Positions 717 through 13,454 of a stretch of 26,621 nt of DNA are shown here, one piece after another. The stretch spans positions 1 to 26,621 of the forward strand of contig JAZLKY010000275.1 in assembly GCA_045597885.1 (NCBI GenBank), in the 5' to 3' direction. The notes under the pieces are model-generated. The model made no database searches. It saw only the letters and a program-made list of their open reading frames with translations, and was not told the origin of the DNA. A program made the position numbers and the translations under genes. Origin of the DNA: Acutalibacteraceae bacterium. Its GTDB lineage: Bacteria > Bacillota > Clostridia > Oscillospirales > Acutalibacteraceae. The number at the start of each line of letters is the position of its first letter. Within the stretch, counting starts at the first letter, position 1.

Positions 717-2981
717 TTATGCTCCGACCGGATCTTTTTTCTTTTTCTTTCTCAGATGGGTGGTGGTGATGATACTGCCGCCTGCCGCCCCGATGATAAG
801 AGCGACCGCCGCAATGATCGCCGCAACGCCGCCGGAGATCGCGCTTCCCGCATAGGAAGCGGATGTTTCCCGTTCGAAGAGGATATAAGTTCCGCCGTAT
901 TTGTCCTCCTTGCCGGTGTAGAGCGGATCAAGCAGATTGATGGCGGCGGTTTCGTTGAACAGGTGAGCAAAGGATGCATTCTCACCAAAGTTTTTGCTCC
1001 CTGTCTTTATCAGCAGATCGCCGGCACAGATGGGACTGCCGGCATCAGTGTCTTTTGTCGTATACAGCACAAGCCAACCGGTCTTGGCATCCGCCTCGTG
1101 GTTGTTCACATCCGCCGCATCGCCGTCAAGTGTTTTGACTGTCTGATAGTAGACATAATCCTCGCCGTAGGGTGTCATGGCTGTTGACATGATGTGGTGG
1201 GGTATGTTTTCCTCAACAGGCTTTTCCTGTGTAAAATAATCCACCAGTGTGTAGATGTCATAGGCAAGGGCGACAACAAGAAGCACAAATGAGGCGACCT
1301 TGATCACGGATGAGAATTTGACCGTTCGCTGTACACTGTTATAATTCTCGGTCGCTCTGTTGAGGCGGTAACGGTACTGCGGGAACATCTCATCCAGCCC
1401 CGCCTCGTTGACCTCACGGGCGAATGCCGGACTGCCGCCATCCCAACGGTTGAGATATTTTTCGTATTCTTCCTCGTACTTCTGTACGGCGGCGTTAAGT
1501 TTCTCGGTTACTTTGGGGAGCTTTTTGAGTGCATTTTTCTTCAGTACCGTCGCAGTGACACCCGTCGCCGCCAGTCCGCAGGTCGATGCCCAGCAGATAA
1601 TCGTCCGCTTGCTCCAGTAGGACAGATCGCCGCCGACGATCCCGCCTAATTTTTCAAGCCAACTGTCATCGGAGAGGGATTCGTGATTGACGGCACTGCT
1701 GGTGAAGGCGACACCGTCATCGAAAACGGTCCTGTCCACACCGTCGAATATGGAAACGGGTTCCAGTGCTTCGGTGAATTCTTCATATTCTGCGATAGCA
1801 TCGGATGTGCCTTCCTCGGCATCTTCTTCGGCGGAGAAAGCACTTTGCAGGATCTCTTTGATGCCGATGAAATCCACCTGCTTTTTCTGACCGTCGCTCA
1901 TGCAGTAGACGAGCGGATACAGATCGGTCTTGTCGATCTGTGACGACGGTTGTTTAAAGAAGGAGAGTAGGGTGCCGGTGCCGTACTTTGAGCTTGCCAG
2001 CAGGGTGTAAAATCCAAAATCCGTCGTGTTGTCAAGTGCTTCCGGAATCTCAGCCAGTTCGTCTGCCTGTGCGACAAGTTCCTTTTGCTCATCGCTCAAG
2101 CCATCGGTGTCGCTCCCGTCGCTTTCGGTGGGATCAAATGCATCGTCTTTCACTTCAAGTTGACCGTTCTTGTCCTCTGCTACTACGTCCTTTTCAACAT
2201 TCAAAAGATAGTTGTAGAAGAAATCCCAATCTTTGTAGAGCGTGTCGGCTACCGTGCCGTACCGGCTCGCCAGATCCTCTTCAAATGCCGCATGGGTGGG
2301 GAAGCTTTTTTCGTACTGATCCAGCACATTGGGGCCGACATTTGACAGGCGGTCTACCAGTGTGGTGTCATCGGGATCACCTGCAAAAGAGAGCGCCCGG
2401 ATCATCGACATCACGATATCATCATTTGCCTGCATCAGTGTGTCGGTCAGTGCACGGATCGCTTCGGGTGAAGAATCAAAATCGAGAAAGTAATCACCCA
2501 TCAGTTTTTCGCTGTCATCGTCCTTGAACAGATTGAGTGCCTGATAGGCGAGGAGAGCGTTTTTGGTTTCGTTATTATAGCCGTTCTGGAATTCTTCGAT
2601 GAATGAACCGATATCCTCGACCACGGCTTCAATATTCTCTTCATAGTCCTTCATGATCTGCTGATAGTCAGAATAACTGAATTTGCCGAGCATATTCATG
2701 GCGGCGATATCCGTGATCGCTTCTTTCCTGTTTTCGGTTTCTTTATAACCAAGATATACACCGGTATCCAGTGTCAGGTTAAGATTGCCGACGACCATCT
2801 TGTATCCGGCGGACGCCAGCTTGCTTTTCGCATCTGCCGGAGTGGCTGCGGCAACAGTGACGATCTCACTGACATACTTTTTGCCATCCGTTGCGGCAAA
2901 TGCCTGCAACGGCAGTGTTGTGACTGCCATGATCAGCGCAAGCGCCAGGGAGAAAGCTTTGACAAAGTGTTTCATTTTCAT
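717..2981 (-). CDS. Exported, membrane-anchored protein (754 aa): signal peptide, beta-prism-like repeats, helical domain with two internal hydrophobic segments, C-terminal TM anchor. Paralogue of the N-terminal half of 3708..8393
   Basis: RBS GGAGGT before ATG. Signal peptide ends LQAFA|A. Repeat NLN..VYLGYKETENRKEAITDI. Hydrophobic segments at about 1542-1604 and 1232-1307. C-terminus GSAISGG-TM-RKKKKK. Confidence 0.85.
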   Translation of the reverse strand: MKMKHFVKAFSLALALIMAVTTLPLQAFAATDGKKYVSEIVTVAAATPADAKSKLASAGYKMVVGNLNLTLDTGVYLGYKETENRKEAITDIAAMNMLGKFSYSDYQQIMKDYEENIEAVVEDIGSFIEEFQNGYNNETKNALLAYQALNLFKDDDSEKLMGDYFLDFDSSPEAIRALTDTLMQANDDIVMSMIRALSFAGDPDDTTLVDRLSNVGPNVLDQYEKSFPTHAAFEEDLASRYGTVADTLYKDWDFFYNYLLNVEKDVVAEDKNGQLEVKDDAFDPTESDGSDTDGLSDEQKELVAQADELAEIPEALDNTTDFGFYTLLASSKYGTGTLLSFFKQPSSQIDKTDLYPLVYCMSDGQKKQVDFIGIKEILQSAFSAEEDAEEGTSDAIAEYEEFTEALEPVSIFDGVDRTVFDDGVAFTSSAVNHESLSDDSWLEKLGGIVGGDLSYWSKRTIICWASTCGLAATGVTATVLKKNALKKLPKVTEKLNAAVQKYEEEYEKYLNRWDGGSPAFAREVNEAGLDEMFPQYRYRLNRATENYNSVQRTVKFSSVIKVASFVLLVVALAYDIYTLVDYFTQEKPVEENIPHHIMSTAMTPYGEDYVYYQTVKTLDGDAADVNNHEADAKTGWLVLYTTKDTDAGSPICAGDLLIKTGSKNFGENASFAHLFNETAAINLLDPLYTGKEDKYGGTYILFERETSASYAGSAISGGVAAIIAAVALIIGAAGGSIITTTHLRKKKKKDPVGA

Positions 2982-3009
2982 GACCTCCGTTTATAAGTTT
3001 ATAAATTGT

Positions 3010-3711
3010 TCAATCAAATCCGTAATGGTATAGCATCCTGCCATCGCCGTACCGGGCATTTTCGATCGCCGTATCCGTGTTCTGCCCGGAAAATACACCG
3101 CCGTACTGGTCATATGCCGGCTTGCTCCTGTCGACAGTGCCTCCTTTACACAGCAAAGCCGCCTGCGGTGTGTGGCAGGTGATCACCGCATCACTGTCGT
3201 AATAGGCAGAAGAAACATAATCGGTGTCGGTGTTGATGCGGTATCCGTTCAGCAAAATATTCTCCACGGTAAAGGCAAGCCGTTCACCGCCGTCCATATT
3301 CAGATGGACCTTGACACTGTCAACGATGCCCGGCACCCATACCGAGAAGTGTGTCATATATTCGTTGTCATTCGGGCGAACGAAGGCGGCTTTCAGCACA
3401 TCAGCATTCAGATTCTGCTTTTTGTTTTTGTTCCACGACAGATCAAAACGGTAGGTCGAAGAATTACCGTAGCCGTTGTTGGCTTTGTATCCGAAATCGA
3501 ACCAAAGCTGATAGACGGCATCGTTATCCATATCATTTGAGTTGCACGGATTATACAGATAGATGTCGATATCGTAACGGTACATTCCGCTTGCCGCTTC
3601 GTTTCCGGTGCTTTGATCGGCTGTTCCGTCGGCGGCATTGGCTGCAAATGTCGTCAGCAACATAGCGAGCAGTAATACTATCGCTGTGACAGATGATTTG
3701 ATCCGGCTCAT
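3010..3711 (-). CDS. Secreted protein (about 233 aa) with a beta-sandwich domain, possibly PLAT/LH2-like
   Basis: Start moved to MSRIKS, an ATGA overlap with the upstream stop at 3708-3710. Signal peptide ends FAANA|A. Beta-rich pattern YRYDIDIY...VYQLWFDF...FVRPND...HFSVWVPGIVDSVKVHLNMDGGERLAFTVENILL. Confidence 0.75.
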   Translation of the reverse strand: MSRIKSSVTAIVLLLAMLLTTFAANAADGTADQSTGNEAASGMYRYDIDIYLYNPCNSNDMDNDAVYQLWFDFGYKANNGYGNSSTYRFDLSWNKNKKQNLNADVLKAAFVRPNDNEYMTHFSVWVPGIVDSVKVHLNMDGGERLAFTVENILLNGYRINTDTDYVSSAYYDSDAVITCHTPQAALLCKGGTVDRSKPAYDQYGGVFSGQNTDTAIENARYGDGRMLYHYGFD

Positions 3712-6700
3712 TTTAACACCAGCTTTCCGTATTTCATCGTGTTCCATGTCACGCCGCTCACGATCCCCGCACCGTCTTTGACACTGTTGTCGAATCGGTG
3801 AGCGAACAGATAGATCCGTGTATCTTTGTCGTGCCCCTCTTCGCTGGCAAAGACACCGTCGTTGAAATCACACCGTCTGCCCGAAGTTGTCATGACATTT
3901 TCCCATACGAGCTTATCTGAATTTTCCGGAACGAGGTCTTTTTCTCCCGCCGCCAGATTCATGACGGGTCGATTGGCGGTCCCGGTGGTATAATACAGAT
4001 ATATTCTTAATCCGTTCGTTCCTTCATTGAATGAAATGGCCTTTGTTCGGTCGCCACTGTATAGGTAGCGGTCACACGCCCGCTTGTATGTTACGCCGTC
4101 TATGTCGATGCTTGGTGCGCCGTCGTGCCCCACGGTGCAGAGCAAATCTCTGACGGCATATTTGGCAGTGCCGTTTTTGTCGGTATATCTGTCATAGCCT
4201 ACAAAAACGTATTTGCCGTTGGCACCTTTGTTCATATCGAGATTAATGAAAGCATTACACCCCATATTCAGCAGGTCGATCATCGCTTCATCACGGGTGT
4301 TGCCGCTGCCGATGTACAGATCACTGATGTAGGTTTTGGCGGTTTCATACTTCGAATGAATATAGTTTGTTTCGCCGGTATATCCTTTCAGTTCACCGGT
4401 TTTCCCTTCTCTGACGACCTCACCGTTATAGATCCTTTGCTGAACATCCTTTTCGGTCGCCGTCAGGGCGGAGGCGCAGTCCTTGACGAGAGGGACGGCA
4501 CTGAAGTCGATCGAGGTGATCGGTTCATTGGGGGCACATCCGACACTTGTGGAATAGTAGAGATAGTAGTCGCCGTTTTTATCATGGATCGGTTCGCTGC
4601 CGGCACGGGTGTACTCTGTCCCGCTCACGGTGATCGTCAGCGTTGCGTCACTTTTGTTCTGCGGTTTAAATTTGATAATGGAACAGATGGCATCCAAAGC
4701 GTTGTCCGTCCGTGTCACGCCGATGTATGCCGCTTCTTTCGGCTTGTTGTCAAATGCACTCTGCACCGAGTCGCTGTATCCGACCGCCAGATTTTTAAGT
4801 ATGACCTCATCGGCGGCACTCTGTATGGCATTGACGATGCATATATCGTCTTTCATATTGTTGTACCGCTCGGTCATTTCTTCTTTTTGGTCATCGTCCA
4901 GCTTCAGAAAACTCTTTTCTTTTCCGACTGTGGCATCAAAGCTCCATGAATAGACCGACAGAGCGGAAATATACTTTTTTTCGTGCGGCTTTTCGTCCTT
5001 GACGAACAGATACTGCGGCTTCTTTGCGCTGAAAGCGATATTATGCGCCGCAGTCCTGTTGGGTGTTTTGGCATCCTGTACGCTGTAAAGCCCCGCCCCG
5101 TTGTATTCCTGTTCTTTTTCCGGGTTGTCTGTGAGCTTGATGTCATCGGGTGTCAGTGGGGGAATGCCGGGGATCATGCCACTGACATAGAGATTTTTCA
5201 GTCTCGGTCTGGAGTCGCTCCATAAATACTGCTCATAGTCCTCGGCGGATTGAACAGGGTACTCAGCGATCCGGGGCAGGATCTCCTGTCGGGAGTCTTC
5301 ATTGATCCCGTTCCATGCATTGGATGTAAGGATACCTCGGTAGAATGAGGTGATTTTCACATCGTCTTCCTGTATCTGCCCGCAGAACTGATAGAACACA
5401 TTGCAGGCGGCAAAGCTTTTTGACAGGGTGACGGTCTTATTGTCTGCTTTCGGCTTTGGAACGGTCACTCTGCCGGATACGATCATCTCATTGAGGGCGA
5501 CAACACTGTCGGACAGTGCCGTATACGATTTGACGGAATAGACCGCCCGGTAGGGGTTGCAGGTGGTCGAATAACCGAGGTAGGTGACGATGTTGTCAAC
5601 CGTCTTTTCGCTGGATGTTTTGCCCTTGCCGATATGCCGGACGATCTCAAATGTCATATCGTAGTCTTCGGCAAAATCGTTCTCCCATACCGTAAACCCG
5701 TTTTCTTTGGCGTATTGCACGATCTCGTTGCCGTCCTTGGCACTGGTGTTTTTGCCGGTAAAGAATGCCAGTCCGCCGATATACTGTTCTCCCGATGTAT
5801 AAGTGACACTCGGATGGAAATAGATATATACATTTTGATCGCTTTTCCAGTTTTGATAGGTGAGGGAATAGGGATGATATTCGCTGTCGCCCGTGGCGTT
5901 GAGGTTATACGCATCACCGCCGCAGAACAGGTTGACAGGTTCAAACCCCTCACGGGCGGACGATTTACTGCTCACGATCTGCAGGTCAGCATAGACGGGC
6001 GTACCGGCGTAGGATGACTTACCGTAATAGATCGACGGGATAAAGGAAGGGATATCCTCTCCCGCCCGGACATAGGTTGTGACACCGTATGCCATCGAAT
6101 CCCCCGTACCGATCCCCTGCGGGACGATGCGGATATCTGTGATGGCTTCAGAGGCAACGGTCGTCGTTTTGTAACCGAGGTAGGTGTACGTGCCGCCCTT
6201 TTGGCTGTAAAATGAGGTCAGATTTTTATCAATCGGGGTGAAGCCCATTTTTTTGAGTTTGTCCTTTGCGGCTGTTTCCGTTTTTTCAACAGCGACATAA
6301 AGGGATTCCAGATACGGTGTGCCGGCAGGCGCATCCGATTGTTCTCCTTCGTTGATTCCGGTCGTTTCACCCGCATAATAGAAAAGATAAATGGCGGGAG
6401 CACTCTTATTTTCGGAGTAGGAATTGAGATCGGCAACCGAACCGGGGCCGAAATACCGTACCGGTCGATAGCCGGTTGGGGTGAGCGTATCTCCCTTGAC
6501 CAGTTTGAATGTGGCGCCTGTCGAATCGACACGGATGGGTTCGCCGGCGGTATCCTGCTTTGAATAATACAGGGCGGCAAATCGCTTGCCCTTGCCTGCG
6601 TTAAGGTCGCACGGAACTCCGTCCGCTCCCCTTACCGCATCGTATCGCATGTAGTGCGATTGGCGATAGTCGTAAACGTGGATCGGAATATCTTCTGCCG

Positions 6701-8393
6701 TATATTCCAGCACATCCTCTTCATCCATGACGCTGTCGATGATCCAGTCGATGAGCATATACGCCAGAACGATGACGGTAAATGCCGTCATTACCCATGT
6801 TCCGATGATCAGTACGACGCCCATATAGCCGAGAATGGTGGCGATCGCCCCCGTCCCTGCGGCAGTCGCCGCATGGGCGCACAACGCCCACATGCCGGTG
6901 GCTTCTGCTGTTGCCCAGCCGTAAAAGCCGAGTCGTGCCATTTGTACGACATTGACGGTGATGTTGGCGAGAACAACGACTGAATCAATCACCGTGGAAC
7001 CGATGGAAAAAGCGGTCATCAGATAATTGAGGTTTTTATCCTTCTGTTTTTCCGCAATCAGGTCGGAATACTCTTCCGCCGAGGCGGTCTCCCGTATTCC
7101 TTGGTAAGTAAGCGCGATTTCACTTGTATAGGGGATGGGATCGGTTCCTACCCAAACCGAGAGCTTTTCAGAGCCGTCCTTGTTGTACTTGGCGATATTG
7201 CTTTTCAGCTCGTCGGTGTACTTTTGGGTTTCGCTGATCTTGGCGTTGTCATTGACCAAAGAGAGCGCCATCTGCGGGATGCCGACGATCCGCATCACAC
7301 CGAACTGCCCTTTGGTGAGTGAGGCGGCAAGGGGATAGATCCTTCTGACATCCTCCATGGACGTATATTCTGCCTGACCGAGCGAAACGATGTAATCCCC
7401 GACTCCCCTTCCGTCCGCCAGAATATAGGTGTTCAGCAACTCATATGCCATCAGATAGAAGGCACTTTTATCCTTGTCCTCCAATTCTTCACAAGCGGTT
7501 ATATTATTGATGACTTCATCGGGGATCTCGTAATCTTCGGTGTTTTCCTCATCCTTATCTTTGAGCGCATCATACCCGTTTTTTTCAACGAACGCCTGGG
7601 CTGTGCCTACATTTTCGGCAAAGTCACGAAGCGGTTGACGCAGGTCCTTGGCGATCTTCTCATACTCACGGTCAAGCTGGCAGTCAAGATCCTCTGCGGT
7701 GATCTGCCGATGGACCGGGCTATTGACAAGGCGTTGCGCCCAGTTGTCTTCCGTACAGTCGGTGACACCCGCTGCCATGGTGTTGATCACCGTGAGCATG
7801 ATGCCGGTATTGGCTTGACAGAACAACTTTTTGATGAAGTCCTCGCTACAGTCATCACCTGCCAGATAATCCCCAAGAGTCACGTTGTTTTTTTCGGGGA
7901 TGTACAGCAGGTCCAGTATTTCTTTCGCTTCTATGGCGGCAGGGCTGTTGTTTTGGAGATTGTTTGCATATTCGTTGAACGATACCATCAGCGCAGACGT
8001 TATTTTTGAGACCTGCTCCATTTCCTTTTCAACGATGTACGAATAATTTTTCGTTTCGTAGCCGGTGTTCATTTCCAGCACCGACAGATCGGTAACGGCT
8101 TCATATTGATTCGTAGTGGTTTTATATCCGAGGATCACGGCATTGGCATCGTTTCCTTCATTGAGATCGCTGTCTACGGGTATATACCCACCGTCTTTAC
8201 ATTTTTTGATCGCTTCGGCTTTCGTTGGGGCGGAAAAAGTACAAACGGATTCGATATAAAGCTCCTGCGCCGCCGCCTGCGTTGTGTTTTCTGCCGTCGT
8301 TCCTAAAGCGGCAGAGGCGGGGTTGATAAGGAGGGCTGCTGTCAAAAGGTAGGTCAGCACCGTCATGGCGACAGATTTCATCTTACCGCTCAT
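3708..8393 (-). CDS. Large exported protein (1561 aa): signal peptide, helical domain, roughly 95-aa hydrophobic Gly/Ala-rich segment, multiple beta-prism-like repeats, no C-terminal anchor
   Basis: Long open frame overlapping the upstream stop by 11 nt. Signal peptide ends PASA|A. Repeats DLNEG..ILGYK..AVTDL, DLNAG..ALYY..GEPI, TYLGYKTTTVASEAITDI, DMNKGANGKYVFVGY and FNEG..IYLYY..RPV. Hydrophobic stretch at about 6740-7025. Confidence 0.9.
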   Translation of the reverse strand: MSGKMKSVAMTVLTYLLTAALLINPASAALGTTAENTTQAAAQELYIESVCTFSAPTKAEAIKKCKDGGYIPVDSDLNEGNDANAVILGYKTTTNQYEAVTDLSVLEMNTGYETKNYSYIVEKEMEQVSKITSALMVSFNEYANNLQNNSPAAIEAKEILDLLYIPEKNNVTLGDYLAGDDCSEDFIKKLFCQANTGIMLTVINTMAAGVTDCTEDNWAQRLVNSPVHRQITAEDLDCQLDREYEKIAKDLRQPLRDFAENVGTAQAFVEKNGYDALKDKDEENTEDYEIPDEVINNITACEELEDKDKSAFYLMAYELLNTYILADGRGVGDYIVSLGQAEYTSMEDVRRIYPLAASLTKGQFGVMRIVGIPQMALSLVNDNAKISETQKYTDELKSNIAKYNKDGSEKLSVWVGTDPIPYTSEIALTYQGIRETASAEEYSDLIAEKQKDKNLNYLMTAFSIGSTVIDSVVVLANITVNVVQMARLGFYGWATAEATGMWALCAHAATAAGTGAIATILGYMGVVLIIGTWVMTAFTVIVLAYMLIDWIIDSVMDEEDVLEYTAEDIPIHVYDYRQSHYMRYDAVRGADGVPCDLNAGKGKRFAALYYSKQDTAGEPIRVDSTGATFKLVKGDTLTPTGYRPVRYFGPGSVADLNSYSENKSAPAIYLFYYAGETTGINEGEQSDAPAGTPYLESLYVAVEKTETAAKDKLKKMGFTPIDKNLTSFYSQKGGTYTYLGYKTTTVASEAITDIRIVPQGIGTGDSMAYGVTTYVRAGEDIPSFIPSIYYGKSSYAGTPVYADLQIVSSKSSAREGFEPVNLFCGGDAYNLNATGDSEYHPYSLTYQNWKSDQNVYIYFHPSVTYTSGEQYIGGLAFFTGKNTSAKDGNEIVQYAKENGFTVWENDFAEDYDMTFEIVRHIGKGKTSSEKTVDNIVTYLGYSTTCNPYRAVYSVKSYTALSDSVVALNEMIVSGRVTVPKPKADNKTVTLSKSFAACNVFYQFCGQIQEDDVKITSFYRGILTSNAWNGINEDSRQEILPRIAEYPVQSAEDYEQYLWSDSRPRLKNLYVSGMIPGIPPLTPDDIKLTDNPEKEQEYNGAGLYSVQDAKTPNRTAAHNIAFSAKKPQYLFVKDEKPHEKKYISALSVYSWSFDATVGKEKSFLKLDDDQKEEMTERYNNMKDDICIVNAIQSAADEVILKNLAVGYSDSVQSAFDNKPKEAAYIGVTRTDNALDAICSIIKFKPQNKSDATLTITVSGTEYTRAGSEPIHDKNGDYYLYYSTSVGCAPNEPITSIDFSAVPLVKDCASALTATEKDVQQRIYNGEVVREGKTGELKGYTGETNYIHSKYETAKTYISDLYIGSGNTRDEAMIDLLNMGCNAFINLDMNKGANGKYVFVGYDRYTDKNGTAKYAVRDLLCTVGHDGAPSIDIDGVTYKRACDRYLYSGDRTKAISFNEGTNGLRIYLYYTTGTANRPVMNLAAGEKDLVPENSDKLVWENVMTTSGRRCDFNDGVFASEEGHDKDTRIYLFAHRFDNSVKDGAGIVSGVTWNTMKYGKLVLK

Positions 8394-12027: not shown

Positions 12028-12099
12028 TTTATTGTGAAGAACCAACCCAAATCCCACCGGAAAGGAGGCTTTCGCCCGTCGAAAGCCAAGGCGGTCACG

Positions 12100-12768
12100 A
12101 TGAAAACATATCTTATATCAAACATACACATCCTTATTTGCTGTGCTGTCGGGCTTGCTTACGGTATCGCACGCATCAACAGCAAAAATAAGCCTCCGAT
12201 GTATCTGCTTTTTTCTCTTTTTGCCCTTGTCAGTGCATTTCTGTCGAGAGTATTCTATACCTTGTCCATCGTCTTTCACGGGGGGATCCCCGATACGTTC
12301 AACATCGGCTTTCTCGGCTATGCGGCAACATTCCTGTTTTTTCTCTTGGCGAATATCGGTCAGATGGACTGGCTCGTAGATGACAGGAAATCATTGAGAC
12401 CGATATACCGCATCATTCCTGCCATTGTGCCGACGGCAGAGCTTTTTGCCGCAGTGATCGGATTGTTTCTCAAAAACGTAACATTTTCCGTCCGCCTCTC
12501 GTTCCTTGTCATCACCGTTGTTGCGGGCTTCGCCGGGTATTTCAATATAAAGCACATCATTGTTCCCGATATTGAATTCGGTATTGTCAAAGCGGTCAGG
12601 GGTAACAATCTGATCGAATTTGCTATCGGTATCCTCTCTCTTGCGGAGATCGGATTCAGTGTCTACGGGCTCAACGAGCTTATTCTCTATGTTCAGATAG
12701 TGCTCGGCGTCCTTTACATTGCCGTCATTCCCGTTCTCAGTATGGAGGTGAAGAAATGGACACGATGA
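12100..12768 (+). CDS. Integral membrane protein (about 222 aa) with about 7 hydrophobic helices, function unknown
   Basis: ATG at 12100, downstream of the promoter. Seven hydrophobic stretches by eye. Its stop overlaps the start of the next gene. Confidence 0.75.
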   Translation: MKTYLISNIHILICCAVGLAYGIARINSKNKPPMYLLFSLFALVSAFLSRVFYTLSIVFHGGIPDTFNIGFLGYAATFLFFLLANIGQMDWLVDDRKSLRPIYRIIPAIVPTAELFAAVIGLFLKNVTFSVRLSFLVITVVAGFAGYFNIKHIIVPDIEFGIVKAVRGNNLIEFAIGILSLAEIGFSVYGLNELILYVQIVLGVLYIAVIPVLSMEVKKWTR

Positions 12769-13454
12769 ACTATATCCTTTTTATCTGTACCGCCACGCCG
12801 ATGCTTCTGATGCTCATTCCCATAGAAAAGGGATCGAGAAAAGTGATATTCTTTATGCTCATCGGGATGTTTTGCTGTCTTTTCATCAGCGAGGTCAACG
12901 GCTTTTTTCTCAACATATCCGATTTTGATCTTTTGTATTTCACCATCAATATCACGCCTGTCACGGAAGAGATCATTAAGACACTGCCGGTGCTTCTGTT
13001 CGCCTTAATCTGCTCCGATAGCAGGAAAGACATCATCACCGCTTCGTTCTCCGTCGGTGTCGGATTCGCCATGCTTGAAAATCTCATGATATTGACACAG
13101 AACTTTCAGTCGGTCGATCTTTGGTTTGCGCTCATCCGAGGATTCTGTTCGGGGCTGATGCACAGCATCTGCACAATAGCCATCGGTTTCTTCATCGTCT
13201 TCATCAAAAAGCGGCACAAGATATTTGTGGCGGGCAGTATCACTGCGCTGAATCTGGCGATCGTCTATCATTCGGTCTATAATCTTCTTGTCCAGGCGTC
13301 TTCCCGGATCGCAAGGATTTCCGGGCTTGGTCTCCCACTGATCACCTATACCATAGTCAATCTGACACTGATCGTGCGGATCAGGCAGACTGTCAATAAA
13401 CCCCACAACCGTCAAAAACAGTTACTAAAGGATCAAATCGACCGGGGGAAATGA
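12756..13454 (+). CDS. prsW: PrsW-family glutamic-type intramembrane protease
   Basis: PVTEEIIK, GVGFAMLEN, GLMH and YHSVYN follow the PrsW motif order (EExxK, FxxxEN, H, HxxxN). RBS GGAGGTG. The last 24 residues or so are encoded inside the repeat element. Confidence 0.85.
   Translation: MDTMNYILFICTATPMLLMLIPIEKGSRKVIFFMLIGMFCCLFISEVNGFFLNISDFDLLYFTINITPVTEEIIKTLPVLLFALICSDSRKDIITASFSVGVGFAMLENLMILTQNFQSVDLWFALIRGFCSGLMHSICTIAIGFFIVFIKKRHKIFVAGSITALNLAIVYHSVYNLLVQASSRIARISGLGLPLITYTIVNLTLIVRIRQTVNKPHNRQKQLLKDQIDRGK

Follow-up and report, generated by a model that had tools for sequence, protein, structure and literature searches.

A stretch of 26,621 nucleotides from an Acutalibacteraceae bacterium (contig JAZLKY010000275.1; hereafter the window) carries on its minus strand the genes for two proteins, P0001 of 754 amino acids (aa) and P0002 of 1561 aa, which belong to groups that we term SHORT and LONG, respectively. 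Judged by sequence comparison, P0001 and P0002 are true ancient paralogues with a common, putative membrane module of about 680 aa. Structural models, together with profile matches, further indicate that the first MABP beta-prism of both proteins is split after subdomain 1 by an insertion of about 490 aa. The explanation that we favour, and regard as probable rather than certain, is that these ancient paralogues with their split-prism membrane module serve one envelope system.

Both open reading frames (ORFs) are as given in an earlier sequence-only reading of the window, which had proposed that the two proteins are diverged paralogues on the strength of five pairs of short motifs. All five pairs lie inside collinear BLASTP segments, one aligning residues 36-431 of P0001 with 46-433 of P0002 (24% identity, E=2e-16) and a second aligning 559-663 with 527-643 (E=1e-3). 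When profiles of 22 short-family and 12 long-family sequences were compared using hhalign, residues 3-712 of P0001 matched residues 5-686 of P0002 with a probability of 100% and an E-value of 4.4e-68 over 631 aligned columns. Since this span includes the helical region and continues up to the C-terminal anchor, the homology far exceeds the short repeat motif, and it was on a significant alignment outside that motif that the earlier reading had staked its claim. The alternative that the similarity arose by chance, or is confined to the repeat motif, has a negligible probability: it is ruled out by the hhalign match, which covers about 350 aa of helical region, and by the first BLASTP segment, and nothing speaks in its favour.

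Relatives of both proteins were found, 21 for P0001 (26-66% identity over full length) and 13 for P0002 (25-75%), all of them unnamed proteins from metagenomes or metagenome-assembled genomes (MAGs). Pfam returned no family for either whole protein at E≤0.1. NCBIfam did not return one either, the only match being a chance-level one of P0002 to the Nif11 leader (14.3 bits versus a cut-off of 32.3). For positions 717-8393 there were no sequencing runs on record, nor any holder of RNA data.

The split prism of the shared module

The AlphaFold2 (AF2) model of P0001, built on the short-family alignment (mean predicted local distance difference test score, pLDDT, 72.8), consists of a beta-alpha-beta-beta-beta unit (36-96), a helical region (103-421), two very long helices (458-512 and 534-584), a second beta region (596-702) and a terminal helix. 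In an exhaustive structural comparison (VIA), the top hits to residues ~31 to 706 of this model were solved MABP prisms, namely that of the toxin Plu-MACPF (2qp2; Z 13.5, 139 aligned residues out of the 154 in the prism, root-mean-square deviation (rmsd) 2.7), that of Mpf2Ba1 (8b6v; Z 13.4) and the MABP domain of MVB12B (3tow; Z 9.8, 131 of 152 residues aligned). The N-terminal beta unit comprises only about 65 residues, compared with about 139 aligned, so both ends of the protein are needed to complete the fold, indicating that the prism of P0001 is split.

The same conclusion was reached from sequence profiles. A hidden Markov model (HMM) was built from the contiguous prism at residues 690-870 of P0002, and its positions 3-68 and 88-118 matched residues 32-97 (independent E-value, i-E, 7e-14) and 630-661 (i-E 5e-4) of P0001, respectively. 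Within P0002, positions 3-75 matched residues 42-115 (i-E 6e-14) and positions 91-152 matched residues 602-667 (i-E 5e-8). The two halves of the contiguous-prism HMM are thus found in order in both proteins, which places the insertion between subdomain 1 and the other two, and a profile search of the genome itself gave the same split-prism pattern. With regard to membership of the MABP family, the predicted structures display three three-stranded subdomains that superpose on solved MABP domains; at the sequence level, the profile of the LONG extension (see below) matches Mpf2Ba1, and the other units are linked to the extension prism through the HMM matches. Other searches were less informative: Foldseek with the full P0001 model gave no match in the PDB at E≤0.001, the shape search of the ESM Atlas gave TM-scores of only 0.19-0.26 (the two MACPF rows among them, in one of which 25% of the members carry MABP, are to be taken as a lead only), and its feature search returned only an unnamed cluster.

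The membrane segments of the module were surveyed in homologues from 74 loci, comprising 178 SHORT and 28 LONG proteins. Two internal hydrophobic segments were present in 153 of the 178 SHORT proteins, 142 of which also possess a signal peptide and a C-terminal transmembrane (TM) helix, the latter being found in 175 of all SHORT proteins. The loop between the two segments has a median length of 69 aa (range 22-128), and in the 153 sequences Lys and Arg are enriched on the loop side and Asp and Glu on the outer sides, a charge bias that fits a cytoplasmic loop. The simplest topology for SHORT would therefore have the prism and the helical domain outside, the hairpin passing through the membrane and the loop inside. 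Among co-resident SHORT copies the loop is only 14% identical, compared with 67-69% for the prism and 59% for the first helical part, indicating that the parts predicted to lie on the outer face are the constrained ones.

LONG diverges structurally from SHORT. P0002 also starts with an N-terminal signal peptide, as judged by its sequence, but all 28 LONG proteins contain a contiguous internal hydrophobic block of 46-101 aa, and none has a C-terminal TM helix. The sequence-only reading had correctly noted that one copy ends in a TM anchor (P0001 closes with a TM helix and a K-rich tail) and that the other is the longer one, P0002 continuing for about 875 aa beyond the shared module. Its description of P0002 as non-anchored must be abandoned, because the hydrophobic block of this protein (residues 457-556) is conserved in 28/28 LONG homologues; this is so whatever the number of membrane passes.

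The extension of P0002 was modelled separately (residues 686-1561; pLDDT 79.5, predicted template modelling score 0.77). Its C-terminal part, residues 1352-1535, was matched by VIA to 8b6v_A (Z 15.8, 142 aligned, rmsd 2.6), 2qp2_A (Z 13.4) and 3tow_A (Z 10.6), the next match having a Z of 4.3, and Foldseek matched this prism to 8b6u (E=2.6e-4). A comparison of the LONG-family extension profile with PDB sequences also retrieved the Mpf2Ba1 prism (E=1.1e-5 over 43 positions). According to the model and the sequence comparisons, the ~875 aa that LONG adds to the module form four beta units, at least two of which are MABP prisms (Table 1).

Table 1. Positions in the window of the P0001 and P0002 genes, of their predicted parts and of the gene between them
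Feature	Position	Strand	Basis
P0001, SHORT paralogue, 754 aa	717..2981	-	ORF and translation; SHORT subclade S3
P0001 signal peptide, aa 1-29	2895..2981	-	N-terminal hydrophobic segment ending AFA|A
P0001 predicted MABP subdomain 1, aa 34-96, beta-alpha-beta-beta-beta	2694..2882	-	contiguous-MABP HMM; modelled strands 36-45, 61-66, 74-82, 91-96; part of VIA match to 2qp2, 8b6v, 3tow
P0001 predicted inserted helical ectodomain, aa 97-456	1614..2693	-	AF2 helices 103-421; aligned to P0002 107-455
P0001 predicted helical hairpin, aa 457-585, with a charged variable loop between two hydrophobic segments	1227..1613	-	segments 553-584 and, weaker, ~458-480; modelled helices 458-512, 534-584
P0001 predicted MABP subdomains 2-3, aa 590-706	864..1214	-	strands 596-702 in model; HMM; VIA
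P0001 putative three-part signal at the C-terminus, aa 707-754: motif GSAISGG, then a TM helix rich in G/A and a K-rich tail	717..863	-	sequence, hydropathy
245-aa exported protein, between the P0001 and P0002 genes	3010..3747	-	homologues in 18 related loci
P0002, LONG paralogue, 1561 aa	3708..8393	-	ORF and translation; LONG clade
P0002 predicted MABP subdomain 1, aa 44-106	8076..8264	-	HMM
P0002 predicted inserted helical ectodomain, aa 107-455	7029..8075	-	aligned to P0001 97-456
P0002 hydrophobic block, aa 456-557, nearly uncharged	6723..7028	-	hydropathy
P0002 predicted MABP subdomains 2-3, aa 566-686	6336..6698	-	HMM; aligned to P0001 590-712
P0002 predicted second MABP prism, contiguous, aa 693-870	5784..6317	-	homologous to C-terminal prism (i-E 3e-9) and to both split-prism halves; short-family profile matches in two pieces, in the right order
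P0002 two predicted divergent beta-rich units, aa 871-1122 and 1126-1349	4347..5783	-	AF2 model residues 186-664 mostly strands; weak MABP-profile matches, i-E 3e-5 to 2e-3
P0002 predicted C-terminal MABP prism, aa 1351-1537	3783..4343	-	VIA, Foldseek, PDB profile

LONG and SHORT genes and their cluster

A scan of species-representative genomes yielded 69 loci, mostly in MAGs of Acutalibacteraceae, Ruminococcaceae and Oscillospiraceae from gut and rumen, and their ORFs were cleanly separated into SHORT and LONG by HMM scores. Each locus contains at most one LONG gene, while SHORT genes occur in one to seven tandem copies. Both types were present in 21 of the 31 loci of at least 15 kb; nine of the 31 contained SHORT only, five of these being arrays that run off the end of the locus. 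In L002, L026, L027, L054 and L080, six to seven or more SHORT genes stand in a tandem array that runs off the fetched locus. In the window's own family, sampled across 151 genera, five genomes carry the module, all of them with a single LONG gene and one to six SHORT genes. The split between LONG and SHORT received a support of 100 both in a FastTree phylogeny of 206 sequences (28 LONG and 178 SHORT modules) and in an IQ-TREE phylogeny of a 55-sequence subset, these trees being unrooted, so that either group could be nested in the other. The old duplication and the two co-occurring clades proposed in the sequence-only reading are thereby borne out.

It is also evident that SHORT falls into subtypes whose genes keep to a set arrangement. 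Many loci run from S0 (n copies) through S2 and one gene to LONG, and in the lineage of the window LONG is followed by the gene of about 245 aa and then by S3 in one to three copies. With one LONG gene to between one and seven or more SHORT genes, and with conserved subtypes in fixed order among the latter, the relation is 1:n and not the A/B pair that had been suggested.

A profile search of the full library with the inserted module retrieved 760 clusters at 50% identity, 413 of them at E≤1e-30. In the best 150 clusters the module always starts about 95-150 residues into the protein, and the protein lengths are bimodal (about 700-910 and about 1480-1760 aa). Two other cases are of note. At L043:3-5044 three genes in tandem encode proteins of subclade S5, about 665-680 aa long, that score 354-357 bits with the LONG N-terminal HMM, compared with about 150-275 bits for other SHORT proteins, and they may represent a type intermediate between LONG and SHORT. 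An open frame of 1227 aa (G076:C35:25149-25475) matched the inserted module over no more than its first ~108 positions (E=4e-14) and may be either a third architecture or a remnant. As regards the source labels, a near-identical Clostridial cluster recurs in L031, L036, L048, L049, L055, L058, L079 and other loci (CAV... 'cleanbin' records) under titles such as E. coli, Bacteroides faecis, Collinsella, Hallerella and Sphaerochaetaceae, among others, and the taxon labels of these records look unreliable.

In the window, five minus-strand genes extending from 11936 to 717 abut or overlap one another. Neighbours that recur in related loci are the exported protein of about 245 aa, a protein of about 470 aa with two MABP units, and a PMP-repeat beta-helix protein, the latter two having a C-terminal tail of the SHORT type. 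In the tails of P0001, P0004 and P0005 (717-863, 8383-8520 and 10518-10660), the sequences GSAISGG, TSAIGSG and GSAIGGG are followed by a TM helix rich in G and A, after which comes a K/R tail, and motifs such as AGSVFS.G or ASAISNG precede the TM helix in the SHORT tails inspected. This combination of small-residue motif, TM helix and K/R tail looks like a sorting tag. Diverging from the operon, at 12034-13454 on the plus strand, are the overlapping genes for a 244-aa polytopic protein and a PrsW-family protease. Both were present in all 16 of the 31 large related loci that hold either of them, and with this constant pairing they are a conserved part of the system. At the start of the window, a 5'-open plus-strand ORF (3-1187) contains only the first half of an AraC-type helix-turn-helix domain (Pfam positions 1-41 of 80, aa 186-226) and overlaps the 3' end of the P0001 gene in antisense orientation. 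Probably this is a regulator gene that was truncated or frameshifted, the rest of the frame being spurious read-through.

A proposed common envelope system and its alternatives

In the explanation that we propose, LONG and SHORT are ancient paralogues built on one ~680-aa module consisting of a signal peptide, a split prism, a helical ectodomain and a hydrophobic hairpin. The prism and the helical domain would lie on the outer face of the producer's own membrane, with the hairpin dipping through it. SHORT closes with its conserved motif, TM helix and basic tail and is tandemly amplified in relatives, whereas LONG, single-copy and without the SHORT tail, could reach outward through the wall by means of its four further beta units. 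Both types are obligate co-residents of one conserved, unannotated envelope cluster, along with the PMP-repeat beta-helix protein, the anchored protein with two MABP units, and the PrsW protease with its polytopic partner. From this we infer that LONG and SHORT work in the same surface system, probably together in the membrane via the shared module. The occurrence of one long gene with several short genes, in fixed subtypes and fixed order, likewise points to a multi-part surface system. That the shared module brings the two types together in one assembly, from which LONG projects outward, is a guess, which we consider conceivable but rather doubtful. A complex prediction with the inserted modules (short-family 97-592 and long-family 107-565) returned a score of 0.00 in both runs, which amounts to no verdict and is evidence neither for nor against such an assembly. 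In its most far-reaching form the proposal pictures LONG and the SHORT subtypes as an undescribed membrane-embedded envelope machine of gut Oscillospirales that uses the split-prism module as a new building block, with one LONG through the wall, variable SHORT proteins around it and the SHORT tag processed by the PrsW-family protease as a new sorting enzyme; in this form we regard it as improbable.

Several observations weigh against the proposed explanation. SHORT genes without a LONG gene within 10 kb were found in L014, L063, L064 and L071, indicating that SHORT may not always need LONG nearby. The Pfam model of MABP, PF10240, did not match P0001 or P0002, whether as whole proteins (E≤0.1) or domain by domain (E≤10). 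For the helical domain no relative came to light: the matches of the inserted module in a profile search of PDB sequences were all at chance level, and the Foldseek search with the whole P0001 model gave nothing either. Moreover, the LONG block, being nearly uncharged and about 90-100 aa long, is ambiguous in that it could accommodate either two helices or three, and the extension would end up inside the cell if the passes were odd in number.

The absence of LONG near a few SHORT loci would be expected if the paralogues were independent surface proteins that form no complex, SHORT being a diversified set of tethered binding proteins and LONG a version with a longer reach, and if they shared an operon because of common regulation and common export or processing. 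The variation in SHORT copy number from one to seven or more, with co-resident copies differing by 30-50% overall, agrees with such a set, as does the role of MABP prisms as binding modules in toxins and trafficking proteins (PMC2881412). However, independence gives no account of why each positive genome has exactly one LONG gene and no locus has two, nor of why many loci keep the SHORT subtypes in a conserved order relative to LONG. In addition, among copies the prism, which ought to do the binding, varies least of all regions instead of most. We therefore consider independent action unlikely, though deserving serious attention.

The MABP prisms also bring toxins to mind, since Plu-MACPF and Mpf2Ba1, both MACPF toxins, have such prisms as their targeting domains. 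Accordingly, LONG and SHORT might together make up an alpha-helical toxin of several parts that forms pores or inserts into membranes. It would be released, perhaps after cleavage of the tail by PrsW, and enter a target membrane in the manner of the tripartite ClyA-family paralogues. Alpha-pore-formers generally combine a helical domain with a hydrophobic hairpin, LONG and SHORT are paralogues encoded in one operon, and the hydrophobic block of LONG is contiguous and nearly uncharged. The SHORT loop, on the other hand, is charged and variable, with a positive-inside bias and the median length given above, which fits a resident polytopic protein rather than the hairpin of a toxin, and SHORT carries a C-terminal TM helix with a basic tail; the loop and the anchor both make the toxin reading less likely. 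No Pfam toxin family was matched, and the hairpin fold matches to AhlB (Z 8.3), IpaB (Z 9.5) and colicin Ia (Z 8.7), obtained with the whole P0001 model, of which only the long helical hairpin aligns to AhlB, are within the noise expected for long helices. We judge a toxin to be very unlikely on these grounds. One further argument, that a hydrophobic hairpin excludes secretion, was dropped, as Sec-secreted toxins with hydrophobic hairpins exist; it is the charged loop and the anchor that speak for a resident membrane protein.

Relation to known systems

Paralogy in itself is ordinary, and it is the architecture and the strict genetic pattern that make the LONG/SHORT family of interest. The module is large and conserved, and we found no family model, name or paper for it; its hosts are uncultured or poorly studied Clostridia of gut and rumen. 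Our search of the literature on MABP in Clostridia and on PrsW as a sorting enzyme produced no paper on the LONG/SHORT family. We found no earlier description of the long/short family or of an MABP prism interrupted by a membrane-spanning insertion, such as the one predicted here, which is the first case of its kind known to us. Even if LONG and SHORT do not bind each other, the family merits a model in the domain databases, by which about 7.7 kb of the window would cease to be 'hypothetical'.

With respect to its tail, SHORT (though not LONG) resembles the substrates of the LPXTG/sortase, GlyGly-CTERM/rhombosortase and MYXO-CTERM/myxosortase systems in that its C-terminus combines a motif and a TM helix with a basic tail, and in that the gene of a membrane protease (PrsW family) is a conserved neighbour. 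The SHORT motif is different, however, and cleavage by PrsW is a conjecture; to our knowledge, no PrsW-family enzyme acts as a sorting enzyme. The tripartite toxins of the ClyA family (Hbl, Nhe and AhlABC) are diverged paralogues encoded in one operon, each of them helical with a hydrophobic hairpin, that act together. The window likewise contains diverged helical paralogues with a putative hairpin in one operon, but these show no sequence similarity and, as judged with the whole P0001 model, no convincing fold similarity to the ClyA family, and they add a prism as well as, in SHORT, a long loop of cytoplasmic type and a C-terminal anchor.

The closest likeness is to the MABP domain. In defining it, de Souza and Aravind had already included among its carriers a wall-type protein of Clostridia that combines MABP with beta-helix repeats (PMC2881412). 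Relative to the solved domains (the C-terminal domain of Plu-MACPF, 2QP2; Mpf2Ba1, 8B6U and 8B6V; and MVB12B, 3TOW), the predicted prisms have the same three-subdomain fold over nearly the whole domain, with Z values of 13.4-15.8 for the toxins and 9.8-10.6 for MVB12B. They differ from them in that the proteins have no MACPF, DENN or UMA partner domain, in that each first subdomain has an extra helix and, above all, in that the first prism appears to be split after subdomain 1 by a helical and hydrophobic insertion of about 490 aa.

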